Of a stretch of 64,000 bases of DNA, positions 4,055-48,455 are shown piece after piece. The stretch covers positions 41,272-105,271 of the forward strand of contig JAJYWB010000009.1 of the NCBI GenBank assembly GCA_021791715.1. The letters run 5' to 3'. The notes under the pieces were generated by a model, which saw only the letters and a list, made by a program, of their open reading frames with translations, ran no database searches and was not told the DNA's origin. Positions within the stretch are counted from its first letter, which is position 1. Each line of letters begins with the position of its first letter. The translations under genes were made by a program, and so were the position numbers. Origin of the DNA: Planctomycetota bacterium. Its GTDB lineage: Bacteria > Planctomycetota > Planctomycetia > Isosphaerales > Isosphaeraceae.

Positions 4055-5026
4055 ATGACCGATATGAATACTAACGATCCTTCACATGAGGATCGCGCGC
4101 CGAACGAAGACCTGCAATTTCATAAGGCCGAGTACGCGTCCGAGGCCGCAACGACGACGTGCGTCGCGTGCGGCCGGCCGATCGATTCGATCTATTTCGA
4201 GGCGAACGGACAGATCGTGTGCGAGCCGTGCCGCGATTCGATCCGTTCGGCCGTCGCGGCGGGGTCCGCGCCGGCGCGGTTCCTTCGAGCCTCGATCCTC
4301 GGAGTCGTCGCGGGAATCGCGGGTTTCGCGATCTACTACGCGGTCATGAAATTCGCCCACATGGAAATCGGCTTGATATCCATTCTTGTAGGCTTCATGG
4401 TGGGTTCGGCGGTTCGTACCGGATCGAGAAACAAAGGGGGCGCCGTTTATCAGTTGCTCGCGGTCTTCCTTTCTTACACAGCGATCGGCGCGAGCTACTC
4501 GGCCGCGATCATCCCCGACATGCTCAAAGAACGACAAAACCGACAAAATCCCCCGATCGCCGCGGCGCCCAAAAATCAACCCGCGAACGATCTCACCAAA
4601 AACCGTCCCGACGATCCCCCAAAAGTCGCCGAAAACGACCCCAAAACCGTCGACGCCGAAAACCCCAAAACCGTCGTCAAAAACGACCCCAAAGCCGATC
4701 CCGCGGACGATCCCGATCCCGAACCGACGCCCGCCCCCAAAGCCCTAGCCGCCGCCGGCCTTCAAAATCCTAAAATCAACGCTGCGGCGGATGTTCAAAT
4801 GTCTCCCATTCGCGCCCTGGCGGTTTTGGCGGGGTTATTGATGATGTCGGTGTATGTTCTGCCGATTTTGGTCGGGTTCCAGCAGCCGATCGGCCTCTTT
4901 ATCATCGCGTTCGCGCTTTGGGAGGCGTGGAAGCTTAACGTTCGGCCCAGGTTGGAGATGCGCGGGCCGTTTCGAATCGATGAAGCGAGAGCCGCCGCGG
5001 CGAATGAGATCCCTCGCCATGGTTGA
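4055..5026 (+). CDS. hypothetical membrane protein with N-terminal CxxC...CxxC zinc ribbon
   Basis: ATG at 4055 preceded by a GAGGGG Shine-Dalgarno-like sequence. 'CVACGRPIDSIYFEANGQIVCEPC' zinc ribbon, 4-5 predicted TM helices, Pro/Asp/Lys-rich linker. Stop overlaps the next gene's start (ATGGTTGA). Confidence 0.5.
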   Translation: MTDMNTNDPSHEDRAPNEDLQFHKAEYASEAATTTCVACGRPIDSIYFEANGQIVCEPCRDSIRSAVAAGSAPARFLRASILGVVAGIAGFAIYYAVMKFAHMEIGLISILVGFMVGSAVRTGSRNKGGAVYQLLAVFLSYTAIGASYSAAIIPDMLKERQNRQNPPIAAAPKNQPANDLTKNRPDDPPKVAENDPKTVDAENPKTVVKNDPKADPADDPDPEPTPAPKALAAAGLQNPKINAAADVQMSPIRALAVLAGLLMMSVYVLPILVGFQQPIGLFIIAFALWEAWKLNVRPRLEMRGPFRIDEARAAAANEIPRHG

Positions 5027-6110
5027 ACTTATTGAATCGTTTGAATCCATCTCGTGCCCCGGTTGCGGTTCACCCGTTTCGCCTCGGCTGCTCGCTTGCC
5101 CGAGTTGCCGAGGCTTGATTCACGCCGATCGGTTGAATCGCCTCGCCTCGACCGCCGAAGCCGCCGCGGGCCAAGGAGATATAAGCACGGAGCTCGCCGC
5201 ATGGCGCGAGGCGCTCGAACTTTTACCCCCCGTAACGCGTCAACATCAGATCATTTCTCAAAAGATTGTCGAATTGGAGAAGCGACTCGAATCCGATCCG
5301 AAGCGAGCGACCTCGAAGCCGGTCTCGAAAGGTTCGGAACCCGCGGGAGGCGGCTCGGCCAAAGGCTGGAAGGGCGCCGCGGGGCTCGGTGGAATCTCGC
5401 TGATCCTCTGGAAATTCAAGTTCGTCGCGATCCTCGTGGCCACCAAGCTTAAATTCTTACTGCTGGGACTGACGAAGGCGAGTACGTTCTTTTCGATGTT
5501 TTTATCGATCGGCGTTTATTGGACGGCGTTCGGCGCCCCGCTCGCGATCGGCCTCGTTATCTCGATTTATATTCACGAAATGGGTCATGTGGCGACTTTG
5601 GCGCGTTACGGTCATCCCGCCTCGGCGCCGCTGTTTATACCGGGTTTGGGGGCTTTGATTCGGCTGCGGCGCGATATCCCCGACCCGCGCCAGGACGCTC
5701 GGATCGGCCTGGCGGGTCCGGTTTGGGGTTTGGGAGCGGCGATCGTCGCCGCGATCGTCTATTACGCGACGGCGAGGCCGATTTGGGGAGCGATCGCTCA
5801 GCTCGGCGCCTGGATCAATTTATTCAATCTGATTCCGATCTGGAGCCTCGACGGCGGCCGAGCGTTTCGTACGCTCCCGCGCCGTAGGCGTCGGCTCGCG
5901 GTCGTGGCGATCGGCGTCTTGTGGCTTCTGATCTCGACGGTCGACCCCGGATCGAAGGCCGAGGGGATGCTCGTTTTGATCGGCGCGGGCGCGATCTTCC
6001 GATCGGTCGCGGGAGAAGCTCCGCACGAGTCCGACGACGCGGCGCTCGCGACTTATATCGCTCTCGTCGCGGCGCTCGCCGCGCTCGCGTCGCTCCCCGT
6101 CTCACCGTGA
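5019..6110 (+). CDS. M50 family metallopeptidase (site-2 protease-like) with N-terminal zinc ribbon
   Basis: HEMGH (HExxH) inside a TM helix. Downstream 'NLFNLIPIWSLDGG' (NxxPxxxLDG) motif typical of S2P/SpoIVFB-type proteases. N-terminal CPGC...CPSC. Start overlaps the upstream stop by 8 bp. Confidence 0.7.
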   Translation: MVELIESFESISCPGCGSPVSPRLLACPSCRGLIHADRLNRLASTAEAAAGQGDISTELAAWREALELLPPVTRQHQIISQKIVELEKRLESDPKRATSKPVSKGSEPAGGGSAKGWKGAAGLGGISLILWKFKFVAILVATKLKFLLLGLTKASTFFSMFLSIGVYWTAFGAPLAIGLVISIYIHEMGHVATLARYGHPASAPLFIPGLGALIRLRRDIPDPRQDARIGLAGPVWGLGAAIVAAIVYYATARPIWGAIAQLGAWINLFNLIPIWSLDGGRAFRTLPRRRRRLAVVAIGVLWLLISTVDPGSKAEGMLVLIGAGAIFRSVAGEAPHESDDAALATYIALVAALAALASLPVSP

Positions 6111-6185: not shown

Positions 6186-6960
6186 GTTCTCGATCGCCGC
6201 GAACCGCGAATCGAAGATTTTCACCACGGATGACACGGATTCCACGGATAAGAATAGATAAAATATATACGGTATAATGTTAGATGTCAAACGGCGATCA
6301 CCGCGCGCCGCGAACCGCGAACCGCGAATCGAAGTTTTTCACCACGGATGACACGGATTCCACGGATAAGAATAGATAGAATACATACGTTATAATGTCG
6401 AATGTCAAACGGCGATCGCCGGGCGCCGCGAACCGCGAATCGAAGTTTTTCACCACGGATGACACGGACTCCACGGATAAGAATAGATAAAATATATACG
6501 GTATAATGTTAGATGTCAAACGGCGATCACCGCGCGCCGCGAACCGCGAATCGAAGATTTTCACCACGGATGACACGGATTCCACGGATAAGAATAGAGA
6601 GAATATATACGTTATAATGTCGAATGTCAAAAGGCGATCATCGTGCGCCGCGAACCGCGAATCGAAGATTTTCACCACGGATGACACGGATTCCACGGAT
6701 AAGAATAGATAAAATATATACGGTATAATGTCGAATGTCAAACGGCGATCGCCGGGCGCCGCGAACCGCGAATCGAAGATTTTCACCACGGATGACACGG
6801 ATTCCACGGATAAGAATAGATAGAATATATACGTTATAATGTCGAATGTCAAACGGCGATCGCCGGGCGACGCGAACCGCGAACCGCGAATTGAAGAATT
6901 TCACCACGGACGACACGGACCGCACGGACAGGATAAATAATATATATTTTTTATTTTAGA
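6186..6960. repeat. intergenic tandem repeat array, 7 units of 110-119 bp (two alternating unit variants plus a degenerate terminal unit)
   Basis: Anchor 'gaatcgaag(a/t)ttttcaccacgg' recurs at 6208, 6326, 6437, 6548, 6658, 6769 and 6888. Each unit is a GC-rich block (cgatcgccgcgaaccgcgaatcgaagattttcaccacggatgacacggattccacggat) plus an AT-rich block containing 'tataatgt'. The minus-frame ORF 6298-6852 is just the repeat translated. Confidence 0.9.
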
Positions 6961-7210
6961 TAATGTATAACAATACAATGGATCGATTGATTCGCGAGGT
7001 CGCGTCGTCGAAGCCGTCGTAGTGCGCAAAATCGACGTGATGGATGAAATCGTCGCTTCAGTTCGTTTGAAATTGGAAATACACGCCCGCGGCGCCGCCG
7101 TGTGCGTGAGATCCGGAGGAACAGGAGGTCGAATCGAGCCAGCTCGAAGGAGATACCGAGACGATTCGATATCCGCCGCGTTGGAAAATCGGTTTCGATC
7201 GACTCGCCTC

Positions 7211-7502
7211 GAGCGATGATGCAAAAAATCAACACGATCGCCACGATGATTTCATAATATACGGATATTATAGCGTACAATCTCTCAAAATCCGCAGAAA
7301 AACAAGCCTTTTCATTCATCAGTAACCCCACTCCAAAAAAATCGAGAAAAACCAAAAACGGGTCTTGCAATCCGATCGCGCGGTCGTTAGCGTAAGGATT
7401 TTAGATCCATCGATGTGATTCGGAATTTCTCGATTCACCTATCGATCGATCCTCTCTCGGGCGGGCCTTCGCCGCCCCCCGCGTCGTCCTCAGGTTTGGG
7501 TC
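7211..7502 (+). promoter_or_regulatory. conserved ~290-bp non-coding leader element, copy A (second copy at 48042-48332)
   Basis: Colinear nucleotide identity with 48042-48332. Shared blocks include aaaaatcaacac, aaaaacaagc, aaaacgggt(c/a)ttgcaatcc, gatgtgattcgga, cgatcgatcctctctcgggcggg, cccccgcgtcgtc(c/t)tc(a/g)ggtttgggtc. Lies 131 bp upstream of the ATG at 7633. Confidence 0.8.
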
Positions 7503-7632
7503 AAGAGAATGTATCTCCGGGAGGGCCAGGCGTCGACCGAGCCGACATTTTTCAATTCAGGAATAAGAAACGGCACACATGACCGTTCGCTCTTACAATG
7601 AGTTCGCGTCGCATGAACTAAGGATGCAATAG

Positions 7633-9000
7633 ATGAACTCACATGAAATTGCGAATTCGAGTACGTTCGACTCTAAGGGAATGCTTTCCGATCAACATCA
7701 TTGCGCGAAAGTTTTAACCAGAATGGACGATGCTTGTACGTACACGTGGAATTATCGCAACGAGATGACGGGATTCAGCGAGAAGAATTCGTCGGGGACG
7801 GTGATCTCTTCGGGAACGTATACGTATGATTCGCTCGATCGTCGCATCGGCGTCGACGAGACATCGGGCGGAACGACGACGCAGACGTGGATCGTGTACA
7901 ACGGGAATTCAAACACGCCTTACGCGCAGTTCAACGGCTCGGGCACGCTTTTGGAGCGTTATCTCGAGGGACCGTCTTACTTTCCGGGAGTGACGGGGAT
8001 GATTGCGCGCACGAACGCCTCGGGCCTGACCGACTGGTACTTGACGGGCAAACTCGGCTCGGTGCGCGACATCGTCAATACGTCGGGGACGGTGATCGAT
8101 CACATCTCTTTCGGAGCGTTCGGTTCGATCCGCGCCGAGACCAATCCGAGCTCGAGGAGCCAATTCAAGTTCGACGGCATGCAGAACGATTCGATCACAG
8201 GGTTGTACAACGATTGGCATCGGGGGTATTCGTCCACAAATGGTAGGTTCGAATCATTCGATCCGATGTCTTTTCAATCGAAGGAGACCAATCTCTATCT
8301 CTTCGTGGAGAACGGTCCAATCAACAATCTCGATCCAACAGGAGATATCATCGATTCCATCCTCGAAATGGAATATGGATTTGCCTCACAAAATAACATT
8401 CTGGGTCATCATGGAGGATTCGGCGGTGGGCATGGCGGTATCGGCGGAGGACACGGCGGATTGGGAGGTGGGCAAGGAGCCGGAGGTGGTGGACATGTAG
8501 GGATCGGCGGTGGCCATGGAGGCTTCCCAGGAGGTGGACATGGAGGATTGCCGGGAGCTGGACATGGAGGACTTCCAGGAGGTGGTCATATCGGATCACC
8601 CCGAGTGGGAAATAACCCTGGACATCCATCGCATACACCACCATCTACTGTAACAATTGGTCTTACAGGAGGTGGAGGTACGGTTCACATCGGAATTGAT
8701 CCAGGAAGCGATGGAGCTGTTACGACCACTCCAAATGATCCAAATCCTGGAGTCACACAAATCACCGGCTCGTTAGGAGGAAGTTGGGCTCCTCCTTACG
8801 GTAATCCTTTCAATCCTAATTTTGGTGGTGGAATCTATTACAATCCTCGATGGGGGACGCCTTTTTTCCCATTCAATGTCGGCAATACACCGATCGGATT
8901 TAATCCACCTGGATTTCCTATCGCCATTCAAGGTCCATTGATTCCAATCCCTGGACCACTCGGTCCGTTCGGCCCGAACGGACCTTGGTTTGATCCTTGA
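7633..9000 (+). CDS. orphan RHS fragment: terminal YD repeats + RHS repeat-associated core + Gly/His/Pro-rich C-terminal domain
   Basis: 'YTYDSLDRRIGV' YD repeat. Core signature 'GLYNDWHRGYSSTNGRFESFDPM...NLYLFVENGPINNLDPTGD'. Then GHHGGFGGGHGGIGGGHGG... and a Pro/Gly/Asn/Phe-rich tail. No N-terminal RHS body or signal peptide; ORF opens right after a stop. Confidence 0.75.
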   Translation: MNSHEIANSSTFDSKGMLSDQHHCAKVLTRMDDACTYTWNYRNEMTGFSEKNSSGTVISSGTYTYDSLDRRIGVDETSGGTTTQTWIVYNGNSNTPYAQFNGSGTLLERYLEGPSYFPGVTGMIARTNASGLTDWYLTGKLGSVRDIVNTSGTVIDHISFGAFGSIRAETNPSSRSQFKFDGMQNDSITGLYNDWHRGYSSTNGRFESFDPMSFQSKETNLYLFVENGPINNLDPTGDIIDSILEMEYGFASQNNILGHHGGFGGGHGGIGGGHGGLGGGQGAGGGGHVGIGGGHGGFPGGGHGGLPGAGHGGLPGGGHIGSPRVGNNPGHPSHTPPSTVTIGLTGGGGTVHIGIDPGSDGAVTTTPNDPNPGVTQITGSLGGSWAPPYGNPFNPNFGGGIYYNPRWGTPFFPFNVGNTPIGFNPPGFPIAIQGPLIPIPGPLGPFGPNGPWFDP

Positions 9001-9039
9001 TTCTGATATATTTCCTTTATCCCATAAAAGGAGACTCCG

Positions 9040-11016
9040 ATGTCGATTTTATTTATATCCTTGTTCATCATTACTCAATCTTCCGACGTCGATCGGAATG
9101 ATTCAAGCTCGAACTTGATGAATGCGCCGGAAACCAAGAATTCGGTATTACAAGAGCGCATCAATCGAGCGTTATCGGCCGAATCCCAAGGTGATTCGGC
9201 GCTTCGTTCGCGAGAATTGATCAAATCGATTTTGATCGATCCGGATAACATAAAGGCTCGCGGCTTGCTCGGTTTCGTTCGATTCGATTCGAAGTGGATC
9301 AAGCCCGATCGTATCGGAGTCGATATGGCGCGATCCGCCGTGGATAGCGCGCTTTATAAAGAATATGAAACAATCAAATCCAAAACAAAAAACAACGCCG
9401 ACGATCAGTGGAAAACCGCGATTTGGTGTGAGGAACATGGATTATCCGAAGAGGCTCGGGCTCATTTTCACGTCGTCGGCTACCTCGATCCCACCAGAAC
9501 CGCGGCTTGGAATAAACTGGGATTTAAAAAATATCATGGCGAGTGGATGTCCGAATCGGATCGAAAGGAGATGATCGCCGAAGAACAAACGAGACGTAAA
9601 GCCGACGAATATTGGACGAAGCGTCTTTCGAATTGGAAAAAGATGCTGGCGATTCCTTCACAACGCGATCGAGCGCATTTATACCTTTCGACGGTCGACG
9701 ATCCGACGGCGGTTCCCTCGATTCGGCGGATCTTGATAGCGGGCGACGCGGATTGTCAGATCGAGGCGATCAAGATTTTGAAAAAAATCGACACGATCGA
9801 GGCGTCGGTCGCTTTGTCGACTTTATTGATCCACGGTCGTAATCGGGAGGTGGTCGATCGGACCTCCGATGAACTCAAAAAGAAACCTATCGATGATTAT
9901 CTACCTTTCTTAATTTCAAGATTAACGCATGAACTGAAGTACGAGATCCATTATTCCTCATTAACGGGAATGCCCGACGAAATGGTCGTCGATTTCGGAG
10001 ATTTTTTCGTTAAACGAAAATATGAATACAAAAAAAGTTTGCCTCAAGATACGATTTTTATGCTCAATAAGATGAAACGCCTCAACATCGATCCGTTCGA
10101 TCCTTCGGTTCGAAATTATCTTGAATCGCATCACGTCACAGCGCTCGAAAATTTCGTGAACGATTTTGATTTTATGAAAGACGACTACGGGTTTTTCAAT
10201 CCGAAATTCGCCGTGACCGGTAAAGCGTCGACCGGAATCCTATTCGGCAAGTCGTTTTACAACAATATCGACGAGTATCAAAGGTCCAATATGATAACTT
10301 TAAATAACATCCTGACAGACATAGAATTCATTAAGATATTCAACGGAGCGAGCCTCGTCACAAATCAAAGGATTATACATTATCTGGTCGAAATTTCGGG
10401 CAAAAATTTCGGCGCGAACTCGAAAGATTGGATGGAATGGTTTATTAAATACTCCGCGTATTCAACCGCATCGACGAACACAAGACTCTTAATTAAGCCT
10501 ATATTTGATCAGCTTGTGCCGAATTACTACACGCCGAATTACCTGAGAACACGATCGACGTTTTGTTTCGCTAAAGACACTCCGGTCGTTTGCGTTCAAG
10601 GATATAAATCGATTCAATCTTTGAAACCAGGCGATTTAATTTTGTCCCAAGACGTGACGAACGGCGAATTGAGTTTCAAGCCCGTTTTACGGGCAATAAG
10701 CAATCCGCCCCAACCCGCGATCGATATCGATTTCGGAAGAGATAAGATCACATCGACAGATATCCATCGTTTCTGGATCTCCGGCAAAGGCTGGGCGCCC
10801 GCTCGAGACTTGCATCCAGGCGATCGAATTCGCGCTTTGAACGGCGTTCTCGAGGTCAAAAAGATCGAACATCGTCCGGTTCAACCCGTTTTCAATCTCG
10901 TGGTCGCGGAGAATCACGACTTTTTCGTCGGTCATTCGGCCGCTCTCGTGCACGACAACGATTACGCTCCGCGTGTCGAGAGACCGTTCGATCGCGTCTC
11001 GAATGATTCGCGATGA
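9040..11016 (+). CDS. secreted hypothetical protein with C-terminal Hint (Hedgehog/intein-like) domain
   Basis: Signal-like N-terminus MSILFISLFIITQSS. C-terminal ~140 aa run from 'CFAKDTPVVCVQGYKSIQSLKPGDLILSQD' (Cys-1 block) through 'TDIH' (TxxH block) to 'HDFFVGHSAALVHDND' (terminal HN-like block). Only ~18 aa follow. Distinctly lower GC than the flanks. Confidence 0.6.
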   Translation: MSILFISLFIITQSSDVDRNDSSSNLMNAPETKNSVLQERINRALSAESQGDSALRSRELIKSILIDPDNIKARGLLGFVRFDSKWIKPDRIGVDMARSAVDSALYKEYETIKSKTKNNADDQWKTAIWCEEHGLSEEARAHFHVVGYLDPTRTAAWNKLGFKKYHGEWMSESDRKEMIAEEQTRRKADEYWTKRLSNWKKMLAIPSQRDRAHLYLSTVDDPTAVPSIRRILIAGDADCQIEAIKILKKIDTIEASVALSTLLIHGRNREVVDRTSDELKKKPIDDYLPFLISRLTHELKYEIHYSSLTGMPDEMVVDFGDFFVKRKYEYKKSLPQDTIFMLNKMKRLNIDPFDPSVRNYLESHHVTALENFVNDFDFMKDDYGFFNPKFAVTGKASTGILFGKSFYNNIDEYQRSNMITLNNILTDIEFIKIFNGASLVTNQRIIHYLVEISGKNFGANSKDWMEWFIKYSAYSTASTNTRLLIKPIFDQLVPNYYTPNYLRTRSTFCFAKDTPVVCVQGYKSIQSLKPGDLILSQDVTNGELSFKPVLRAISNPPQPAIDIDFGRDKITSTDIHRFWISGKGWAPARDLHPGDRIRALNGVLEVKKIEHRPVQPVFNLVVAENHDFFVGHSAALVHDNDYAPRVERPFDRVSNDSR

Positions 11017-11072
11017 GAAGGATTCGCATTATTCACCAATAACCTCGATATTATTTTCTTGGAGATTCGATT

Positions 11073-12569
11073 ATGACTCATCCTCGTTCATTTATGACAC
11101 TCTTTTTCTTCATCTTCACGATTGCATCGAACGGATTCGGGCAGACTGCGAACGATTTATTACAAAAAGCGGTCGCCTTGATAGCCGAAGACAAGATCGA
11201 CGAGGCGATCGAATCGCTCAATCGTTCTATCGCATTGGATCCTTCAATTTCAAGAGCATATAGTCACCTCGGTTTCTGTCTTATTGATAAGCAAGTATCT
11301 ACAAAAACTATCGATTGTTTCGAAAAAGCGATCAAGCTTGATCAAAAAGATTTTCTTCCTCATTTTTACCTGGGAACTTATTATATGATGCAATTGGAAA
11401 AATATGATAGCGCTCTTAATCATTTTCTACAAAGCATCGATTTATATCCGGTTTTTGATGTGTCTTATTTGTATTCTGGAATCTGCTCTTTAAATTTAAA
11501 TAAAGATGATGATGCAATGAAGTACATAATTAAAGGCTTAACTCTAATACAAAACAAGCAAAGTTCCTATAAAGGATTATTCTACTTTTATAAAGGATTA
11601 ATTGAACTTCAATCCGGTCGTTTTGATTCAGCGGAAAACGACTTGAAAAACTCGATGAAAATGATCGGAGATCCTAAAGTCTATCTTCTACTCGGCTCTT
11701 TGTCTGATATTCAAGGCGATCATTCCGAATCGATAGCATACAACGCGATTATATTAAAAAATGATATGGAACTACTAAAATCATATAATACAAAAACTAA
11801 TATAGGTGCGGTCGTGTTTAAAACCGATCGGATCAATCAGTCGAATCAACTTGTTGTTTTGGGTGCGGCGTATCATCGCATAGGAGATATGGATAAGGCG
11901 TTGAATCGACTAAATAGAGCCTTGCGGATCGTGGAAAACAACTCATTCGCGTTGACCGAACGCGCATATCTCTATTTGCATTGTGGAAATCTTGAAGCAT
12001 CTATCAATGATCTGAATAAATCCATGGAAATTTGCCCCTCCAAATCGAAAAATTACCTATTAAAATCGGCGGCGGAGATAACGATCAATCCCAAGGACGC
12101 TCCGGAACTCGCCAAAAACTTCGTCAAATTACGTTCCTGGAAGGATCCGGATTCGACGATCGCCACGATAATCGGTTCGCTCGGGGCGATTAAGGCAGGG
12201 GACAAAACGACGTCGACGTCTCTGATAGACGAGGCGATCAAACACTCCAAAAAGAACGTGTGGCCCTATCCGCTCCTCAAGTATCTTCGCGGAGAATTCG
12301 ATGAGAATCTACTCAATAAATCGGCTCGTACCCCCGATCAAAAAAGCGACGCTCAAGCCGTTATCGGTTTGATCGCGGTCGCTCGCGGTAGAAAAGACAA
12401 GGCGTCTGAGCATTTTCATTGGCTCCTCAAACAAGGAAATCCTCGATCGCTCTATTTTGATATCGCTATGAATGAATTGAGAAAAATTGAAGGAAGGAAA
12501 AGCGTCGACGACGCCGTCGCACAATATTGCTCAAAACTCTATAAATCATACATGAACACAAAAAAGTAA
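11073..12569 (+). CDS. TPR repeat protein with signal peptide
   Basis: Signal MTLFFFIFTIASNGFGQ. Multiple 34-aa TPR-like repeats (AYSHLGFCLIDKQ..., HFYLGTYYMMQLEKYDSAL..., YLLLGSLSDIQGD...). AT-rich. Confidence 0.75.
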   Translation: MTHPRSFMTLFFFIFTIASNGFGQTANDLLQKAVALIAEDKIDEAIESLNRSIALDPSISRAYSHLGFCLIDKQVSTKTIDCFEKAIKLDQKDFLPHFYLGTYYMMQLEKYDSALNHFLQSIDLYPVFDVSYLYSGICSLNLNKDDDAMKYIIKGLTLIQNKQSSYKGLFYFYKGLIELQSGRFDSAENDLKNSMKMIGDPKVYLLLGSLSDIQGDHSESIAYNAIILKNDMELLKSYNTKTNIGAVVFKTDRINQSNQLVVLGAAYHRIGDMDKALNRLNRALRIVENNSFALTERAYLYLHCGNLEASINDLNKSMEICPSKSKNYLLKSAAEITINPKDAPELAKNFVKLRSWKDPDSTIATIIGSLGAIKAGDKTTSTSLIDEAIKHSKKNVWPYPLLKYLRGEFDENLLNKSARTPDQKSDAQAVIGLIAVARGRKDKASEHFHWLLKQGNPRSLYFDIAMNELRKIEGRKSVDDAVAQYCSKLYKSYMNTKK

Positions 12570-12663
12570 AATTATAACACAATATTATTTTCTATTCTTA
12601 TCACATATTGATTAGAATGTTTTGTTTCATTAAGACCGATATTATTCGACTATCGCCGTTTTC

Positions 12664-13863
12664 ATGATGAAAATCCTCTTCGCTTCAGCCCACTGCGTGA
12701 TCGATCCATCAAGCGGCGCGGCGATAGCAACCCGCGAACTCCTCGAATCGCTCGTCGCGCTAGGAGACGATTGCCGCGCGTTCTGCATGGGAATCTTCGA
12801 TTACCACCACGAAACACGACCCGAAGACTTTTTATCGTCGCTCGAAGCCGAGATTCATATGGCGCTCGCCGAAGCCGCTTCAGGCGCCGAGGTATCGATC
12901 TTCGACCTCGCGTTAAACGGCGTGAGAACGACGATCGTTCCCACGCAATCGAGCCGCGCCGATCGATCGCCGACACACGCCGAATCGATCGCATTTCTCG
13001 ATCTCTACGAAGTCATCCTCGATCGCTTCCAACCCGACCTCGTTTTAACCTACGGCGGGCATCCCGTCGGTATCGAGCTGATGAAACGCGCTCGCAAACG
13101 GAACATCGCCGTCGTTTTCCAGATCCATAACTTCGCGTATAAAGATCGCCAGGCGTTCGCATTCGCGTCACATATCCTTGTTCCTTCACAATTCAGTCGC
13201 GATTATTATCAAAGAACGCTGGGACTCGACGCCAAGGCGATCGACCCTCCGTTTCGTCTCGATCGCACGTTCGTTGCCGAAACCGAGCGTAAACCTCGTT
13301 ATCTCACATTCGTCAATCCCGATCCTTCGAAGGGGTTCACGTTATGGGCTCGGATCGCTTATGAACTCAGTCGTCGCAGGCCCGATATCCCGCTCCTTGT
13401 CGTTGAAAGCCGTGGCAAGGCGTTCGATCTCGTTCACCTTGATATCGATCTCTCGGATCACCCCAATTTGCATCGCATGGCGAATACGCACGATCCCAGA
13501 CACTTTTATCGCGAGTCGCGCGCGATCTTAATCCCTTCGCTTTTTCTCGAATCGTTCGGCCTGACGGCGCGCGAGGAGCTCGTCAATTCGATCCCCGTGC
13601 TCGCGTCGGATCGGGGCGCCTTACCTGAAACGCTCGGATCGGCGGGATTCACATTTCCGATCCCTTCGCGATACACGCCGATTACGCTCGAAGCGCCGAC
13701 CGCCGAGGAAATCTATCCCTGGATCGATAAGATCGAACGCCTTTGGGACGATCCGGCGTTCGAGGCCAAGGCTCATGAAAAAGCGTGGAACGAATCGCTG
13801 AGATGGGATCCGATCATAATCGCAAAACGATATCACGAGCATTTTGAGTCGATCGCGCGGTGA
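12664..13863 (+). CDS. glycosyltransferase family 4 (GT-B, group 1)
   Basis: C-terminal 'PSLFLESFGLTAREELVNSIPVLASDRGALPE' matches the GT4 E-x7-E/donor-binding region. N-terminal Rossmann half. Confidence 0.7.
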   Translation: MMKILFASAHCVIDPSSGAAIATRELLESLVALGDDCRAFCMGIFDYHHETRPEDFLSSLEAEIHMALAEAASGAEVSIFDLALNGVRTTIVPTQSSRADRSPTHAESIAFLDLYEVILDRFQPDLVLTYGGHPVGIELMKRARKRNIAVVFQIHNFAYKDRQAFAFASHILVPSQFSRDYYQRTLGLDAKAIDPPFRLDRTFVAETERKPRYLTFVNPDPSKGFTLWARIAYELSRRRPDIPLLVVESRGKAFDLVHLDIDLSDHPNLHRMANTHDPRHFYRESRAILIPSLFLESFGLTAREELVNSIPVLASDRGALPETLGSAGFTFPIPSRYTPITLEAPTAEEIYPWIDKIERLWDDPAFEAKAHEKAWNESLRWDPIIIAKRYHEHFESIAR

Positions 13864-13995
13864 GAGCAATCCCGCGTCGATCTCGTTTTGAAAAATGAGC
13901 CGTTTCATGCACTGGGTATCGATATCATAAAAATTATATTCATATATTAATTACTTTTATTATTAATGATATTTCATATCTGCATTTTATCACAT

Positions 13996-14988
13996 TTAGA
14001 TTGAAGCGCACGCCGGAGTTTTGTCGCTCTTCGGGGGCGACGCCGCGGGGCGCACGGGAGCGTCGATCGTCCAATCCCACGCCCACACCTGGTTGCGGCC
14101 GGCGTTCTTGGCCGCGTAAACCGAGCGATCGGCGCGGCGGAGCAGATCGCACGGCGAATCGGCCGAAAAATCGGTCGCGCACGCGACGCCGAGGCTCGCC
14201 GTCACGGTGATCATCGATTCGTGACACGGGACGATCGTTCGCTCGAACGACTCGCGGAATCGCTCGGCGAGGTCGATCGCCCCCTCGAGACCGCACCGGG
14301 GCGCGAGAACCACAAGCTCCTCGCCGCCGTACCGAGCGACAAAATCGGCGCTCCGCGCCGTCCTCCGCAACATCCGAGCCGATTGCCGCAAAACCTCGTC
14401 CCCCGCGGCGTGACCATAACGATCGTTGATTTGCTTAAAATGATCAAGATCAATAAATAAAGCTGAGAATGGATCGTTCGTCCGTTTGCACGTGTCCCAG
14501 ATTCTCCGAGCCTGTTCCTCGAGCGCGTGGCGATTCGCCAGCCCCGTCAGGCCGTCGATGTGCGCCAGGCGTTCGAGCAGGTCTTGGAGGTATTTCGTCC
14601 GGAGCGCGGCGCGAACGCGAGCCTGGAGTTCGGTCGGATCGAACGGTTTGGAGATGAAATCGACCGATCCCGAATCGAGCCCGCGAACCTTCTCGGCGGT
14701 TGAAGCCGCGGCGGAAAGGAAGATCACCGGGATCGACCGCGATCGCGGAACTTCTTTGATCCGCTTGATCACCTCGAAGCCGCTCATTCCCGGCAGCCGC
14801 AATTCGAGCAGGATCAGGTCGGGACGATACGTCGTGCAGGCGCCCAAACCCGAGATCATATCGAGCGCTTCAAAAACCTCGCAGCCGTCGGAGGTGAGCC
14901 AGTTGCGGAGGAAGCGACGATCCGCGGCGTCGTGCTCAATCAACAGCACGCGACGCGAAAGATCCGAATCGCCAAGATCGAACGTCAT
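13996..14988 (-). CDS. response regulator receiver + GGDEF diguanylate cyclase (PleD-like)
   Basis: REC domain (VLLIEHDAADRRFL...LILLELRLPGMSGFEV...IPVIFLSA). GGDEF domain with 'RYGGEELVVL' (GGEEL variant) and RxxD-like region. Confidence 0.8.
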   Translation of the reverse strand: MTFDLGDSDLSRRVLLIEHDAADRRFLRNWLTSDGCEVFEALDMISGLGACTTYRPDLILLELRLPGMSGFEVIKRIKEVPRSRSIPVIFLSAAASTAEKVRGLDSGSVDFISKPFDPTELQARVRAALRTKYLQDLLERLAHIDGLTGLANRHALEEQARRIWDTCKRTNDPFSALFIDLDHFKQINDRYGHAAGDEVLRQSARMLRRTARSADFVARYGGEELVVLAPRCGLEGAIDLAERFRESFERTIVPCHESMITVTASLGVACATDFSADSPCDLLRRADRSVYAAKNAGRNQVWAWDWTIDAPVRPAASPPKSDKTPACASI

Positions 14989-15516
14989 GCTTGATCTCTT
15001 TCCGAATCGTCAAAGACCACAAACTCGACCACCATGCATGCATTACGTTACGCGGCGAAACGTCGTGTCAGCGATGTTGCGGAAAAACCAAGCGAAACCC
15101 GCTCGAACGGGTCGATGACGATCGATCTTCGAGACGATCGCTTGCTTTTTCGACTTCATCGGTTCGACCTTCGCTTCGATCGCGCGATCACCTTGAGCGG
15201 TAACCCGGCCTCGTTGGATTGTATCGGGCGCCTGCGGATTTTAGCGGAAAGGATGCGTTTTGTTTGCTTTTGGGTTGCGATCGGGAACGCGGACGCGGCT
15301 TCGTCAAAACCGAGGATCCGGCTTCGGGAAGATTCCAATTTTGCGTGTCCTATTGATTCGCGTGGCGTTTCGCGCGCGATTTGGTCGAAATTGGGAACGT
15401 CGCGATGCGGTTTGACGTCCCAGGGCGCGGCGGCGACGACGCGTCGATTTTTGTGCGCGAGTTCGCTCGCGGCGTGATCAGGCGACGAAGAGGCCCCCAA
15501 ACCATCCGGAATTCCC

Positions 15517-17577
15517 ATGGCTGAAGAAACGATCGACGCCGGTCTACTCGAGCAAACCAAAACTCAAATTCGCAAGCTCGTCGCCGAAATCGCCGAGCTC
15601 GCCGAATCCGACGTGCAACCTCCGGTCTTCCACACCGAGTTCCTCAATCGCGTGGTCGCCGCGGTCGCGGCTTCTGGCGGCGCGATCTGGCTGCTCGACG
15701 GTCGCAACAACCTTAGGCTCAACCATCAGGTGGAATTTCGCCTCACGGGTTTGCTCGACGGTCGCGTTCGATCGCAACCGCACGACGGCCTTTTGGGCTG
15801 CATGCTCAAGGCGACTCAACCCGTGATCATCCCGCCGGGGGCGGGAGTCGAGGGGGCTCCGGGCGCCGGCAATCCGACGGGTTTCGCGCTCATCATCGCG
15901 CCTTTGATCGTCGACAAACAGGTCGTCGGTCTGGTCGAAGTGTTGATGGACCCCAACCGCCAGGCCGCGACCCAAAAAAGCACGCTTCGGTTCATTAACG
16001 ATCTGTGCGATCTCGCCGAGGGTTATCTCAAAAATCGCCAGATGCGGCAGATTGTTTCGCAGCAGCAATTGTGGAATCAGCTCGAGGGGTTCACGCACGC
16101 GATTCACGGATCGCTCGACCTTAAAGAATCGGCTTACGCGGTCGTCAACGACGGTAAAAGGCTTGTCGGGTGCGATCGTTTGAGCGTGGCGCTCAAGATC
16201 GGCGGTCGGATCGTCATCGAGGCGGTGAGCGGTCAAGAGGTCGTCGAGCAGCGCGCCAATTTGATTCGCGAATTGACCAAGCTTTGCAAAGTCGCCGTGC
16301 TTTCGGGCGACGACCTCGTCTACACGGGCTCGACCGAAACGTTCGCTCCCGAAATTCGTGATGCGCTCGAGGCTTATGTCGACGAATCGGGGGCGAAAGC
16401 CGTCGTCATCACGCTGTTGTTCAAACCGGAAACCGATCCCACCAAAGATAAGATCGCGTTCGGCGCGTTGATCGCGGAACAAATCGGCGACGAAGTGGCG
16501 CCGACCGATATGCATGCGCGGACGGAAGTTGTGGCGCGGCACGGGTCGACGGCGCTTTGGAACGCACGCGAGCACGACAAGATCTTCCTTCGTCCGCTGC
16601 TCAAGATGATCGGTTCGCCCACCAAGTTTTTCCGGGGTAGAACGCTCGCCAAAATCGTCGCGGGGCTGGTCGCGGTCGCGGCGATCATCCTGATTCTCGC
16701 GTTCGTTCCCTGGAAACTGACGATCGAGGGGCGCGGAGCGCTTTGGCCCGATAACAAGCACAACACTTACGCGCCTTTGCCCGGCAAGGTTGTTCAGGTG
16801 TTCGCGGATCACGGGCAGAAGGTGAAAGAGGGGGATCCGCTCGTCAAGCTCGAGAGCAAAGAGATCTCGAAGAAATACTTTGAAATCATCGCTCAGCGCG
16901 AGGAATCGATCGTCAAATCGAAGAATTTGGCGAATCAGATCACCAAGGCGAAGGCCGACGATCGCGTGCAGTTGCAGGCGCAGCTCGCCGAGGAGGAGAT
17001 CAAGCTCGAAAGCGCCAAAGATCAGCTTGAAATCCTTCAGGATCAGCTCGCGTCGCTGGAGATCAAGGCGCCGCACGCGGGGATCATCACCACCTGGGAA
17101 CCGAAGAAAAACTTCATGAATCGTCCCGTCGACGTGGGAACCGAGCTCCTTTCGGTTCTTGATGTCGACGGCGAATGGGTGATGGATGTTGATGTACCCG
17201 ACGACGACATGAGCCCCGTGCGTCGAGCTTACGCTCAGCTTATGAAAGATATCGAAGCGGGACGGAAGAAGCCGGGATCGACGCTTTCGGCGTATTTCGT
17301 CTCGGCGACCGATCCCGAACACAGATATCCCGGCTACGTTCGGAAGATCTCGTCGAAAGCCGAACTTGTCGACACCAAACACGTGGTGAAGGTGACGATC
17401 GGCTTTAGCGATAAGGTTCGACGCGAATACGAGGCCAAGAACGGCCCGCTTCGGCCCGGCGCCGAGGTTCGCGCCCGGATCGATTGCGGTCAAGCGCGGC
17501 TCGCGTATGTCATCTTCCGCGACGTCATCCACGTGTTCTATGAAACCGTCTTGTTCCGATGGCCGTTTATGAACTGA
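15517..17577 (+). CDS. tandem GAF sensor domains - TM helix - HlyD-like membrane-fusion/biotin-lipoyl domain fusion protein
   Basis: Two GAF-like segments (GGAIWLLDGRNNLRL...GLVEVLMDP and VNDGKRLVGCDRLSVALKIGG...). TM helix LAKIVAGLVAVAAIILILAF. Then 'PGKVVQVFADHGQKVKEGDPLVKLES', a long coiled coil, and 'IKAPHAGIITTWEP' hairpin/beta-barrel blocks of HlyD/MFP proteins. Confidence 0.65.
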   Translation: MAEETIDAGLLEQTKTQIRKLVAEIAELAESDVQPPVFHTEFLNRVVAAVAASGGAIWLLDGRNNLRLNHQVEFRLTGLLDGRVRSQPHDGLLGCMLKATQPVIIPPGAGVEGAPGAGNPTGFALIIAPLIVDKQVVGLVEVLMDPNRQAATQKSTLRFINDLCDLAEGYLKNRQMRQIVSQQQLWNQLEGFTHAIHGSLDLKESAYAVVNDGKRLVGCDRLSVALKIGGRIVIEAVSGQEVVEQRANLIRELTKLCKVAVLSGDDLVYTGSTETFAPEIRDALEAYVDESGAKAVVITLLFKPETDPTKDKIAFGALIAEQIGDEVAPTDMHARTEVVARHGSTALWNAREHDKIFLRPLLKMIGSPTKFFRGRTLAKIVAGLVAVAAIILILAFVPWKLTIEGRGALWPDNKHNTYAPLPGKVVQVFADHGQKVKEGDPLVKLESKEISKKYFEIIAQREESIVKSKNLANQITKAKADDRVQLQAQLAEEEIKLESAKDQLEILQDQLASLEIKAPHAGIITTWEPKKNFMNRPVDVGTELLSVLDVDGEWVMDVDVPDDDMSPVRRAYAQLMKDIEAGRKKPGSTLSAYFVSATDPEHRYPGYVRKISSKAELVDTKHVVKVTIGFSDKVRREYEAKNGPLRPGAEVRARIDCGQARLAYVIFRDVIHVFYETVLFRWPFMN

Positions 17578-17694
17578 TTCACACGGCTGAAACCTCTTTT
17601 TGTTGTTACGACCCTGATTTGATTGTCGAGGTCGTCGTGATGAACGACCCGGCCGGCCTGCAATCCGTTCCATCCGATACCGGAGATCCAAGAG

Positions 17695-18696
17695 ATGTCG
17701 ACGTCCCTGAAATTCGCGATCGCGGCGGCCATGACGATCGGCGTCGTGTCGATCGCGGCGACGGCTCAAGAGATCGGCGATCGTTCCGCCGACGGCCAAA
17801 AATCGTTCATCGTGCACGACGGAGAAGTGAGCTGGCTGTCGAAATCGGACGTCGCTGCGCTCCGTGAAGGCGTGCTGGAAAAAATGGAGCTTCATGTCGG
17901 CAGCACGGTGGAAAAAGACGGAGTCGTCGGCGTTCTGAACGATCGGATGGCGAAGCTCGCGGTGCGGAAGGCGATGATCGTCGCCAAAGAAACCGCTCCT
18001 GTTGAAAAGGCCGACGCCGAACGTCAACGCGCGCTCAAATCGCTGGCGCGGATGGAACGTTTGAACGGCAAAATCCCCAACACCGCGTCGAAAGAAGAGA
18101 TCGAAAAAGCCGAGGCCGAGGTGATGGTTTCGGAAGCGGCGATTCACGAGGCGCGAGAAAAACAGACCGAGGCGCAGATCGAACTGAGCATCGCGCAGGA
18201 ATCGCTCGAGGAACACACGATCAAGGCGCCGTTTTCGGGTGTGATTATTGAGCAGCATAAGTATCCGGGCGAGAGCGTTCGAGCCAACGAGCCCGTCGTC
18301 AGGCTGGCGAATCTCGATCGATTGCGCGTTCACTGTTACGTTCCGCTCGAATACGCCTTCCGGGTTCGCGTGGGGATGCTCGTCGACGTGAAACCCTCGA
18401 TCCCCGACATCGCCTTGCCGATCGAACGCAAGCTTTTCCGCGGCAAGATCACGTTTGTGGATCCCGAGGTTCAGGTCGCGGGCGAAAAGAAACGACGCGT
18501 CTTCGTCGACGTGGAAAACAACGAGGAACGCGAACTTCAGCCGGGAATGGAAGCCGATTTGAAGATTTACATCGATCCCGAATCGGCGCCTCCGCCTCCG
18601 TCCGATATGATCAAACGAGTCGCCGAGACCGGTACCGGGGCGAAGGAACCGCTCCCGTCGAACGAAACCCAACCGGCTCGGAGCGTGAAACGATGA
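17695..18696 (+). CDS. HlyD family periplasmic adaptor (membrane fusion protein-like), signal peptide
   Basis: Signal MSTSLKFAIAAAMTIGVVSIAATAQE. Lipoyl half 'LHVGSTVEKDGVVGVL', coiled coil, 'IKAPFSGVIIEQHKYPGESVRANEPVVRLANLDRLRVHCYVPL'. Confidence 0.65.
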   Translation: MSTSLKFAIAAAMTIGVVSIAATAQEIGDRSADGQKSFIVHDGEVSWLSKSDVAALREGVLEKMELHVGSTVEKDGVVGVLNDRMAKLAVRKAMIVAKETAPVEKADAERQRALKSLARMERLNGKIPNTASKEEIEKAEAEVMVSEAAIHEAREKQTEAQIELSIAQESLEEHTIKAPFSGVIIEQHKYPGESVRANEPVVRLANLDRLRVHCYVPLEYAFRVRVGMLVDVKPSIPDIALPIERKLFRGKITFVDPEVQVAGEKKRRVFVDVENNEERELQPGMEADLKIYIDPESAPPPPSDMIKRVAETGTGAKEPLPSNETQPARSVKR

Positions 18697-18793
18697 CTTT
18701 CGCGCATCCGACCCGAGGCGACCGTTTCCACGCGATTTCGCGCATTCGCGGCCGATCGCTTTCGCTCGATCCTCGATCAAGGAGCGTCGTTTT

Positions 18794-42621: not shown

Positions 42622-42942
42622 ATGGCGTTCGTCGGGGAGACGCTCGCGAAAATCGATCGGAAGCTCGATTCCCAAATCGAATTAAAACGACAGGATGCTT
42701 CGAAATGACGCGCGAACCGATCGGGGGTTCAACGGCGATCGTACGACGTTTTTCCGCGCGATCGAGGCGGATTGGAGGTCGGATCTCGCCCTGATCGTTT
42801 CGATTTTCACCTTATCGCTCGACGCTTCGGTTTCATGTACATTAAGACGAAGTATCGACGAACGGTCGTGATCGGCCGGACGCGGAACGGTCCACATCGG
42901 CTTGCGATCACGTCGAATCGTCGATCGGTCGAGGGCGTTGTC

Positions 42943-43155
42943 ATGAAATACCGAGTCTTGATCGAGACGGATGAAGACGGCGCGTTCACCGCGGAGGTAC
43001 CGGCGTTGCCGGGTTGCGTTTCTCAGGGGAAGACGCGAGCCGAGGCGATTGAAACGATCAAAGAGGCGATCACGGCGTATCTTTCAAGCCTCGATGCGCG
43101 CGGCGAGCCGATTCCGCCGCCGATCACCGAAGAGATCGTGGAGGTGATCGTATGA
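42943..43155 (+). CDS. hicB: HicB family antitoxin (UPF0150)
   Basis: 'MKYRVLIETDEDGAFTAEVPALPGCVSQGKTRAEAIETIKEAITAYL' matches HicB 'y.v.ie.dedG.y.a.vPdLPGC.sqGeT.eEAl.n.keAi'. Stop overlaps the hicA start (ATGA). Confidence 0.7.
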   Translation: MKYRVLIETDEDGAFTAEVPALPGCVSQGKTRAEAIETIKEAITAYLSSLDARGEPIPPPITEEIVEVIV

Positions 43156-43376
43156 AATTCGTGCCTCACGCGAAGGCCGAGAACGTCGTCAAGGCGCTCA
43201 CGAAGGCGGGGTATGAGATTGACGATCGTCAACAGGATTACGTCGTCCTCCGCCATCCCGATCCGCCACATCGTCGGCTGACGACTCCGACCGAAGGCGT
43301 GGCGACTCTGGGACTGATTCGAAAGATCATCCGCCAGTCTGGGATGACTGTTGAAGAATTTCGCAAGTTGCTCTGA
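43152..43376 (+). CDS. hicA: HicA family mRNA interferase toxin (YcfA-like)
   Basis: 74 aa. 'KALTKAGYEIDDRQQDYVVLRHPD....TTPTEGVATLGLIRKIIRQSGMTVEEFRKLL' fits the HicA dsRBD-like pattern (GSH.h..h......vP.H...i..GtlrsIlkqagi). Confidence 0.65.
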   Translation: MKFVPHAKAENVVKALTKAGYEIDDRQQDYVVLRHPDPPHRRLTTPTEGVATLGLIRKIIRQSGMTVEEFRKLL

Positions 43377-43795
43377 TTCGATTTTCCGGGCCGCCGAGTG
43401 CGGATTGGAACGGAATTCGCTAAGAGTTTCGCGGCGGTTTCGGATCGCGTTCGACCGCGGCCCCGGTCGGCGAAAATCGCCCAATTCGCACGGATTTCGG
43501 CTCGATTTCTCGAATCACCGCGGTTCATCAATGAATTCCATAGGTGTTCGGAACGAGGGCGAGCGACTTGAAATCTTCAAGAAAACGGATACCTTTAACA
43601 GTCTCGAACGCATGCGCGGACGGGGCGCCTTCGGCCGACTTCATTCGTGAATTCGCGATCGGTCACGGATCGTCGGGCGCTGCGTAACCAATCCGCATTG
43701 AAACGACCGCGGAGCGAAGCGAACGTCTTGCACGCCGATCGCCCCGCGTCGCCTGAGACTCCGACCGACACTCCAGACTCCGGACAGAAATTAGG

Positions 43796-45286: not shown

Positions 45287-45330
45287 TCGTCGCATTTGGA
45301 ATGATCAACGACGAATTATTTTTGGATGAC

Positions 45331-45900: not shown

Positions 45901-46140
45901 CCCCTTTGCTATTTACCTCGATATGAATGATTATTTTAAAATGCCGGCTCGGTCGGCGCCTCGCCCTCCCGACAAACACCCTCCATGTTGTAACTTACCG
46001 CGATATTCGGCGCGTCGCCCCCGCTGTAAACGTACTCCTATGTAAATCATATCGCGAAATACGCCGATTAAAAATAATCGGACAATTCGCGGGCGAACCG
46101 CGATCGCGCCTCACCCGCATCATAAAATCCACTCGCTTGA

Positions 46141-48332: not shown

Positions 48333-48455
48333 GATCGTTAAGGATCATTCGATCATAGCGATGATTCCTTGCGAAAATAGGATTGGCCTCGTTCAATAAT
48401 CCTCAGCGCACCAAAACGTTCAATTTCGCGTACTTCCATTCGAATAGCGCTTTGA

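Follow-up and report, generated by a model that had tools for sequence, protein, structure and literature searches.

The stretch of DNA analysed here, referred to as the window, comprises 64,000 nt from an assembly of a Planctomycetota bacterium of the family Isosphaeraceae (GCA_021791715.1, contig JAJYWB010000009.1, positions 41,272 to 105,271 of the forward strand), and coordinates are given within it unless another locus is named. It carries two copies of a non-coding element on the forward strand, copy A at 7204-7502 and copy B at 48035-48332. Copy A lies upstream of a gene for a 455-aa orphan Rhs/YD-repeat C-terminal toxin (7633-9000, +), and copy B precedes a gene for a DUF1573/HYDIN-Ig-like membrane-anchored protein (48471-49535, +). 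An earlier sequence-only reading had described the element as a leader present twice in front of two unrelated genes. The count of two proved wrong, as the element belongs to a family of at least seven distinct copies, at least three of them in the same metagenome-assembled genome (MAG). We propose that it is probably the promoter and the beginning of the 5′ leader of multi-copy orphan Rhs toxin cassettes, one copy of which was captured by an unrelated operon.

Copies A and B are colinear and share 76.3% identity over 304 columns in blastn (E 5e-37); in a MAFFT alignment, 220 of 299 columns are identical and one 1-nt indel occurs. Their edges are sharp on both sides, with flanks that fail to align, and the boundaries of 7211-7502 and 48042-48332 given earlier were correct to within 7 nt. 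Both copies also contain, as had been reported, TTGCAA (7365 in A and 48195 in B) and the blocks GTGATTCGGA (7415 and 48245), CGATCGATCCTCTCTCGGGCGGG (7443 and 48273) and GGTTTGGGTC (7493 and 48323). Copy A ends 130 nt before the start codon, close to the 131 nt noted before, whereas the 124 nt noted for copy B did not hold: the distance is 138 nt to the ATG at 48471 called by both ENA and NCBI, or 123 nt to a TTG at 48456. The neighbouring genes are non-homologous, as the downstream proteins differ in their Pfam matches and the upstream genes encode an M50 peptidase in one case and a dioxygenase in the other. A search of the 64 kb with an nhmmer profile of the A and B pair revealed no third copy, the next match having an E value of 0.12.

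Conservation resides at the level of DNA or RNA and not of protein, as the sequence-only reading had it. The mismatches of the MAFFT pair are spread evenly over the codon phases (27/26/26), the open frames differ among the seven copies, and no open reading frame (ORF) is open in all of them. The single forward frame common to A and B shows, as read from the sequences, approximately 50% amino-acid identity at approximately 75% nucleotide identity, which is the neutral expectation. This frame (VIR...IDPLSGG...PASSSGLG) was rejected as a gene, being devoid of a ribosome-binding site, divergent at the element boundary and closed in other copies, and a minus-strand frame was dismissed on the same proportion of approximately 50% to 75%. 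The 24 transitions versus 54 transversions between A and B look like the spectrum of saturated sites. Mismatches are also clustered, with a longest perfect run of 23 nt (P 0.05), a sum of squared run lengths at P 0.013 and some 30-nt windows reaching 83-87% identity. Saturation together with clustering implies that the copies are old and that the positions they still share are either constrained or homogenised by exchange. A template/variable repeat pair of a diversity-generating retroelement was considered and rejected, since the bases of copy A at mismatches (A 19, C 25, G 15, T 20; copy B similar) show no adenine bias; no reverse transcriptase was found among the scanned neighbour genes.

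The assignment of the gene after copy A to the Rhs family was upheld by a weak TEN_YD-shell match and by the JGI name of RHS repeat-associated protein. It has 60 homologues, about 25 of which are small proteins of 370-460 aa that share the N-terminal half only, and about half of the listed homologue N-termini start with MNAH or MNSH. The small homologues are 65-80% identical over the first ~240 residues, up to the end of the Rhs/YD core (...NNLDPTG), and unrelated after it; in the comparison with homologue P0006, identity is 78% over residues 1-240 and the conserved core covers the first ~238 aa. An alignment of the start regions, in which the N-termini read MNAH or MNSH, places the Shine-Dalgarno (SD) sequence AAGGA and the ATG of the window gene at 7620-7635 (+), and AAGGA or GAGGA together with the ATG is kept in all Rhs-type copies. 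The gene thus has the features of orphan rhs-CT modules, namely the end of an Rhs core up to a DPxGL-type motif, a variable C-terminus and no delivery shell. Both downstream proteins had been described as secreted, which suits the N-terminal hydrophobic anchor of the protein after copy B but not the Rhs protein, in which neither a signal peptide nor a hydrophobic N-terminus was seen by eye. ORFs following the Rhs gene in the fetched loci have no domain match on record. In the window, the place where an immunity gene is expected is occupied by an unusual partner, a gene at 9040-11016 for a 658-aa protein with a hydrophobic N-terminus, a pretoxin-HINT domain at residues 517-633 and its own ribosome-binding site. 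That 7633-9000 and 9040-11016 form one gene broken by a stop codon was rejected because of three stops between them and the separate ribosome-binding site of the second gene.

Copies C to G were found through homologues of the Rhs gene of copy A, in five fetched loci whose genes start with MNAH or MNSH. The element was present upstream in all five, in the same orientation and starting ~430 nt before the ATG, with nhmmer matches to the family at E values of 1e-48 to 1e-93. Copy C lies at 9570-9869 of locus L019 (ERZ27237285, on a different contig; also in L020 and L021), copy D at 9568-9865 of L022 (GCA_027351595.1; also in L023 of ERZ27237285 and in L024), copy E at 9566-9867 of L025 (JGI 3300054988), copy F at 9467-9754 of L029 (ERZ27237090) and copy G at 6384-6681 of L030 (JGI 3300054988). 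Copy A matches the five-copy and seven-copy family profiles (E 2.6e-86), as does copy B (E 7e-83). By exact-protein look-up, both downstream genes of the window were found on the 214-kb ENA contig ERZ27237285 k141_73372, and the gene of copy B also in the NCBI MAG GCA_027435715.1 and on JGI and Logan contigs; the copy D locus L024 belongs to that same NCBI MAG. Neighbour genes at the related loci carry PSCyt/PSD, DUF1501 and HXXSHH domains, which would point to a planctomycete host.

Among the Rhs-linked copies, homology is unbroken from the element through the spacer, SD sequence and ATG into the Rhs core, and copies A and C share 83.6% identity across 7213-8264 of the window. The sequence-only reading had allowed for the element being part of a longer mobile element, and copy A indeed lies within a longer repeated unit (element, spacer, SD sequence and ATG, and ~600-1000 nt of Rhs core), but this unit is a gene cassette and not a transposon. 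In 7/7 copies the element is co-oriented with the downstream gene at a similar position, while the upstream neighbours are all different; those of the Rhs-linked copies include the M50 peptidase with a repeat array, a Kdo hydroxylase, a repeat array, a tRNA synthetase and a pseudouridine synthase. The leader has diverged faster than the Rhs core (53-77% versus 73-84% identity among copies). Since copies C to G were recruited through the Rhs gene, the ratio of six Rhs-linked copies to one other is biased and does not give the true share of non-Rhs copies.

A second class of orphan Rhs cassettes, with genes beginning MNLEPF or MNFETF, was encountered at 4559-5949, 9762-11170 and 12746-12940 of locus L027. 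Their three leaders are shorter and match only profile positions ~151-282, which cover the core promoter and the first leader blocks. An 80-aa upstream ORF called in these leaders was rejected, as a stop codon interrupts it in the third copy. A gene for an IS66-family transposase (L027 6695-8215) lies between two of the class-2 cassettes.

Block conservation within the element was scored on the seven-copy alignment (A5). From its 5′ end, the element contains a promoter-like box found by consensus scan, TCAACA-N18-CATAAT at 7229-7258 (+) and TCAACA-N18-CATGAT at 48060-48089 in copy B. It is 83-86% conserved in the seven copies, is weaker than the core described below and lies 135 nt upstream of the -35 hexamer; it may be either a second promoter or a binding site. 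The most conserved block (0.91-0.94 over the seven copies) is a palindrome, (T/A)GAAAA-N7-TTTTCA, at 7296-7314 (+) and 48127-48145, which reads TGAAAA-N7-TTTTCA in the family and is located ~95 nt upstream of the predicted start site. It is a candidate binding site for a dimeric regulator. An A-tract block (CAAAAAAATCGAGAAAAACC...; 7334-7358, +; 48165-48190 in B), retained in all seven copies, adjoins the -35 hexamer upstream and resembles an UP element.

The core is a sigma-70-like promoter, TTGCAA-N17-TAGCGT at 7365-7393 (+), with TTGCAA-N17-AACGTT or, with a spacing of 16 nt, TAACGT as the counterpart in copy B (48195-48223). All seven copies read TTGnnn-N16-18-TAnnnT and have a near-TTGACA -35 hexamer, a spacer of 16-18 nt and the A2 and T6 of the -10 hexamer; conservation of the -35 region (7362-7371 in A) amounts to 0.91. 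The -35 hexamer varies as TTGCAA, TTGCAC, TTGTAA or TTGCTA and the -10 hexamer as TAGCGT, TAGCAT, TAATCT, TAGTGT, TAAACT, TACAAT or TAACGT. Across the seven copies and the three class-2 leaders, which read TTGAAA-N17-TATAAT or TATTAT, A2 and T6 are always retained and the inner -10 bases are free. A generic promoter scan had omitted this core, as its hexamers score under the 9-of-12 rule of that scan. Transcription would start at ~7400 in copy A and ~48230 in copy B, which would give leaders of ~235 nt, and two leader blocks, TTAGATCGAT (7401-7410) and CGTCGTCCTC (7482-7491), are each conserved at 0.89. The element does contain the TTGCA of a sigma-54 promoter (GG-N10-GC, TGGCAC-N5-TTGCA), but this reading was rejected because the upstream GG is 11-12 nt distant and copy A lacks it; nor does the spacing fit a promoter of the extracytoplasmic function (ECF) type. 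The earlier suggestion of a shared promoter plus a structured 5′ untranslated region stands in its first part, a promoter with a leader being the best supported reading, but not as regards structure beyond one hairpin. The regulon-specific leader suggested at the same time may also apply.

This hairpin consists of GGGCGG-loop-CCGCCC at 7459-7477 (+) and GGGCGG...TCGCCC at 48289-48308 and occurs in the local minimum-energy fold of every copy. Its stem reads GGGCGG/CCGCCC in A, GGGCGG/UCGCCC in B, GGCGAA/UUCGCC in C and F, GGCGAA/UUCGCU in E, GGCGAA/UUCGCA in G and GGCGAU/AUCGCC in D. In the seven-copy alignment the hairpin is retained with compensatory changes: four of the six pairs are changed on both sides, and 90.5% of cells are paired as compared to 33-45% in slid controls. 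On the opposite strand, the G-U pairs of B and E would turn into C-A mismatches, which points to an RNA of the forward strand. The sequence-only reading had stated that the stem is kept while the loop length varies; the stem is kept, but the loops of A and B are equal without an indel, and length varies only across the wider family (7-11 nt, mostly C-rich). Variable loops and covarying stems would argue against a double-stranded protein binding site at the hairpin. No intrinsic terminator was found there by the scan, the stem being followed by CCCGCGTCGTCC without a U-tract.

Beyond this hairpin, the proposal of a structured cis-regulatory RNA received no support, with folding z-scores of -0.86 and +0.87 and a covariation term of 0.06 kcal/mol (RNAalifold, seven-copy alignment). 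The other three RNAalifold helices contain no compensatory pairs among these seven related sequences. With Rfam 15, no match to the element reached the gathering threshold, the only hit of the window being tRNA-His, and relaxing the cut-off to E ≤ 10 yielded only scores of 10-14 bits, which are noise given thresholds of 50-64. Pairing of the two GATCGATCG blocks into a stem was rejected, as the stem contains changes that are not compensated; the motif is also a palindrome that occurs commonly in this genome. The alignment thus appears to support one leader hairpin and not a larger riboswitch-like fold.

In the Rhs copies, the approximately 100 nt between the element and the SD sequence form a unit of a separate repeat family, which explains the sharp 3′ edge of the element. 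As matches of a profile of this segment show, among them 45329-45971 on the minus strand of the window, the spacer unit at 7512-7607 (+) is a member of a family of ~95-130-nt intergenic repeats; it has a core resembling repetitive extragenic palindromic (REP) sequences, CGGGAGGGC.AGGCG.CGACCGAGCC, at 7518-7543 and a further GGCTCACCAGGAGGTTCGCCCTCCCAAA segment. The Rhs copies carry one such unit, except for two in copy F, and none was detectable in copy B by profile search. The family carries a GGAGG-TTCGC-CCTCC hairpin and also forms arrays that often flank toxin cassettes. A tandem array of ~106-bp units lies at 45325-45971 (-) of the window, and further arrays are located at 8975-9527 and 13288-13816 of L022, 13509-14013 of L025, 9903-10132 of L030 and in L024, with a single unit in L005. 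Gene callers convert such arrays into spurious ORFs, an example being the 199-aa gene at 8975-9574 of L022. A HicB/HicA toxin-antitoxin pair at ~42940-43380 (L004 4473-4906) is located upstream of a 496-aa gene of unknown function and the array of the window. The NCBI MAG contig L005 matches the window only from 45939 (L005 3677), where a BamA-type gene and the single repeat unit replace the array and the 496-aa gene; this position, exactly at the array, is either a rearrangement breakpoint or an assembly join.

A different array, 111-bp units in ~6.8 copies with 91% matches (6195-6947, +), lies 250 bp upstream of copy A. Its unit belongs to a family distinct from the spacer unit and has a TATAAT-like box, and it was not found in the other fetched loci. 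Upstream of copy A, the near-identical ENA contig (L003) differs from the window by 12 mismatches and by approximately five fewer 111-bp units.

The nearest relative of A and of B shifts along the element when 40-column windows of the alignment are compared. In columns 261-300, where the hairpin variant containing CCTCTCTCGGGCGGG is located, identity between A and B is 81%, as compared to 33-57% with all others; in columns 61-100, B is nearest to F and G (75-78%) and shares 45% with A; in columns 221-260, both are nearest to F (85-90%). The pattern indicates that copies exchange segments by recombination, and the perfect 23-mer seems to be a tract that A and B have in common through recombination rather than a motif under constraint in every copy. 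Larger rearrangements were also seen. Locus L020 shares the downstream flank of the window (99.4% identity to 12658-18698) but contains cassette C and another upstream flank. Locus L019 has the upstream flank and cassette of L020 with a different downstream flank, in which a split GT4 gene is 92.7% identical. The Rhs cassette locus (L019, L020/L021 and window 7200-18700) behaves as a rearrangement hot spot.

Copy B shares with the family the element only (profile match 48041-48334) and has neither the repeat-unit spacer nor the Rhs gene. Its identity to A, C, E and F (64-70%) and to D and G (54-59%) lies within the range among Rhs-linked copies. Beyond 48334, no homology to the Rhs leaders was significant window-wide. 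The start of the downstream gene weakly resembles the Rhs start in register (SD sequence, ATG and ~9 codons), with an E value of 0.82 when the whole window is searched and of 0.003 when the search is confined to the 228-nt spacer, a resemblance that we regard as suggestive only. The DUF1573-like identity of this gene held, with matches to DUF1573 and HYDIN-type Ig domains just under threshold. Only three homologues were found among 5.8 billion proteins, and two orthologues in a relative (81-82% identity) lie on ~1.8-kb contigs cut at or just after the element. In this relative, locus L012 retains the last 12 nt of the element and the conserved downstream spacer at the orthologous site, so that copy B was at this site before the two lineages split.

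The DUF1573/Ig-like gene is followed by a gene for a 158-aa protein and then, after longer gaps, by co-oriented genes including one for a PMT_2 glycosyltransferase. This region contains a second duplicated 5′ region, 146 bp with 91% identity, at 51680-51825 and 53457-53600. It holds a TATGAT/TATAAT box, an SD sequence and the start of the PMT_2 glycosyltransferase gene (53549) as far as codon 12 (MLAGIRDETID). The other copy precedes a non-homologous 348-aa gene with a called start at 51874, and the ATG of this copy at 51774 is out of frame with that gene.

Wider searches were carried out with 20-mer probes cut from the perfect A/B block, which is specific to this pair and therefore makes a poor probe. 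Scanning GTDB species-representative genomes with TCGATCCTCTCTCGGGCGGG gave two chance matches only (Prevotella and Kitasatospora), and JGI metagenome contigs scanned with GATCGATCCTCTCTCGGGCG gave five matches whose similarity was confined to the seeded block. Two looser patterns returned 104 loci among viral contigs, all by chance, the best of them (L121, E 7e-5) inside a 427-aa ORF. In one of the five JGI matches, on an unrelated contig (L014 119-173), the A/B 23-mer occurs by chance; by our own translation, the opposite strand there reads as the ribosome-binding site and start of a ferredoxin-like gene. The segment GAGAGAGGATCGATCG resembles a strong SD region on the minus strand, and A and B have no conserved ORF there.

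Taking these observations together, we favour as the probable reading that the element drives the expression of orphan Rhs toxin cassettes. From 5′ to 3′, it would comprise the weaker promoter-like box, the palindrome, the A-tract, the sigma-70-type core and the first ~100 nt of a ~235-nt leader with its C-rich-loop hairpin. Rhs cassettes would continue with one or two REP-like units and the SD sequence, and their coding part would join ~32 cassette-specific codons after the ATG to the final ~200 codons of the Rhs core and to a toxin end that varies. This whole unit would have been duplicated at dispersed loci, with copies swapping segments by recombination. In one such event, recombination would have placed copy B, a member of the leader family, before the unrelated DUF1573/Ig-like operon, the capture presumably running from cassette to operon. 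The operon is presumably transcribed from the cassette promoter under the same predicted regulator, and would thus be co-regulated with the cassettes. Several points weigh against this reading. The promoter rests on consensus, and promoter rules of planctomycetes are poorly known; moreover, the ~160 nt conserved upstream of the -35 hexamer exceed what a simple promoter needs. Gene conversion among paralogues could maintain similarity in the absence of function, as tracts such as the A/B 23-mer suggest, and given the Rhs-based recruitment many unrelated genes may likewise have the element in front of them. Finally, no support for conservation outside a narrow lineage came from scanning GTDB and JGI with the 20-mers.

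A more far-reaching version, which we consider rather unlikely, is that element, hairpin leader and flanking minisatellite-like arrays form a portable expression platform for toxin cassettes, in which every dispersed, shell-less Rhs-CT gene would be transcribed independently under one regulator, acting at the palindrome, and one leader RNA, and which recombination could donate to other operons. If true, the toxin genes would form a regulon specific to this lineage, served by a new cis-regulatory RNA or a new operator, and the promoter duplication would not be passive. It is unlikely that the element acts mainly as a structured cis-regulatory RNA, such as a riboswitch, an attenuator or an RNA thermometer-like element, which controls translation or elongation and to which the promoter is incidental. 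The long predicted leader, the one hairpin with compensatory changes and forward-strand G-U pairs, and the two leader blocks at 0.89 conservation are in line with it, and CU-rich tracts (CCUCUCUC and the C-rich loops) could pair with the AAGGA or GAGG of the SD sequence. Nevertheless, the leader folds no better than its shuffles and covaries negligibly, helices 1-3 have no pair changed on both sides, Rfam is silent, the GATCGATCG stem is uncompensated in B, D, E and F by our reading of the alignment, and in copy F GTCGTC has become GACGAC without compensation. In addition, a generic repeat unit, undetectable in B, makes up the part of the leader nearest to the start codon. Another alternative is a stand-alone small RNA gene, in which the TTGCAA-N17-TAnnnT promoter would yield an RNA of ~100 nt ending at a GC hairpin terminator, the location being incidental. 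Some small RNAs typically use C-rich loops as seed regions, and the A-B homology stops ~25 nt past the hairpin, as in a self-contained module. This is nonetheless very unlikely, as CCCGCGTCGTCC follows the hairpin in place of a U-tract, the terminator scan is empty there, and in 6/7 copies homology continues into the downstream gene at a fixed position relative to the ATG.

A mobile or recombination element, such as a repeat resembling miniature inverted-repeat transposable elements or a sequence that bounds a transposable toxin cassette on its left or serves for its recombination, would be conserved for movement or cassette exchange and not for transcription. It would account for the dispersed loci, the unrelated upstream neighbours and the common sharp 5′ boundary. 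The arrays flanking the cassettes, the three-way mosaic of the window, L019 and L020, the mosaic similarity within the element and the IS66 transposase between class-2 cassettes point in the same direction. We regard it as quite unlikely, though, given that the copies have no terminal inverted repeats in common, that no target-site duplication was seen by eye at the junctions, and that no recombinase is consistently adjacent. Orientation to the downstream start codon is moreover constant in 7/7 copies at a similar distance, and the best-conserved positions are promoter hexamers and not the ends. Alternatively, the element may be a functionless passenger of cassette duplication kept by gene conversion, with copy B as the remnant of a decaying Rhs cassette whose gene was replaced. 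The mosaic similarity with its A/B-specific tracts, the faint resemblance of the B gene start to an Rhs start and the faster divergence of the leader than of the Rhs core would fit. We hold this to be highly improbable, since 74% identity remains despite saturated mismatches, with clustering of the conserved positions. Even in class-2 leaders, the hexamers of the promoter are selectively kept, and the 3′ end of B is retained at the orthologous site in a relative with an 82% identical protein.

The favoured reading, a promoter and leader of toxin cassettes with one captured copy, has counterparts in known systems. Propagation of promoters before non-homologous genes is widespread in prokaryotes, and duplicated promoters for the most part move together with the gene they serve (Matus-Garcia, Nijveen & van Passel 2012, PMC3488235). 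Similar to the putative mobile promoters of that study, A and B are homologous non-coding DNA with non-homologous genes up- and downstream in one genome, and the Rhs-linked copies, which move with their gene, correspond to its gene-accompanied promoters. The rule applied there (≥80% over ≥50 nt, -150 to -50 from the start codon) does not capture the pair, however, as A and B share 74-76% at about -430 to -130 and overlap that interval over too short a stretch, and the promoter described here belongs to a toxin cassette family and has a long leader. The orphan rhs-CT modules of enterobacteria immediately follow a full-length rhs gene (Poole et al. 2011, PMC3150448; Koskiniemi et al. 2014, PMC3967940). 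The cassettes resemble these rhs-CT/rhsI orphans in their truncated core up to a DPxG-type motif, their variable toxin end, their occurrence several times per genome and their proneness to recombination. In contrast, the cassettes described here are dispersed; each has its own SD sequence and ATG, begins with ~32 specific codons and is preceded by ~430 nt of conserved DNA.

The closest functional analogue is the conserved internal promoter P2 of Salmonella and relatives (Starsta et al. 2020, PMC7043789). In Salmonella it precedes 50 or more Rhs toxin ends and allows toxin and immunity protein to act as an intracellular toxin-antitoxin pair without the delivery shell (PMC7043789). In both cases, one conserved promoter precedes many different Rhs toxin ends. 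P2 is located inside the rhs coding sequence, 89 nt before the sequence encoding PxxxxDPxGL, with a CTG start (PMC7043789), whereas the element does not code for protein, has a proper ATG downstream of it and is found before a non-Rhs operon as well, and the two sequences are unrelated. REP sequences, bacterial interspersed mosaic elements (BIMEs) and REPINs resemble the spacer unit and the arrays, which are likewise short, GC-rich, hairpin-capable, multi-copy and tandem; they differ from the element itself, which has no palindromic core or terminal repeats, keeps a fixed orientation and is much longer. The element is therefore best regarded as a new, lineage-specific case of known kinds, a captured or duplicated promoter-leader combined with orphan Rhs cassettes that have their own promoter, and not a new class.

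In a phylum whose promoters are poorly described, the element is one of few conserved and alignable promoter candidates, and the seven-copy alignment provides a profile for counting it in planctomycete genomes. Copy B would represent a clean natural case of an operon acquiring the control region of another gene family, and together with the second duplication 3 kb further on in the same operon it suggests that regulation in this genome repeatedly changes through the reuse of promoters and 5′ ends. If the promoter reading is true, truncated Rhs genes would be independently expressed units and not silent spares awaiting recombination, comparable to the internal transcription in Salmonella, and this would bear on the role of shell-less Rhs toxins inside the producer cell.

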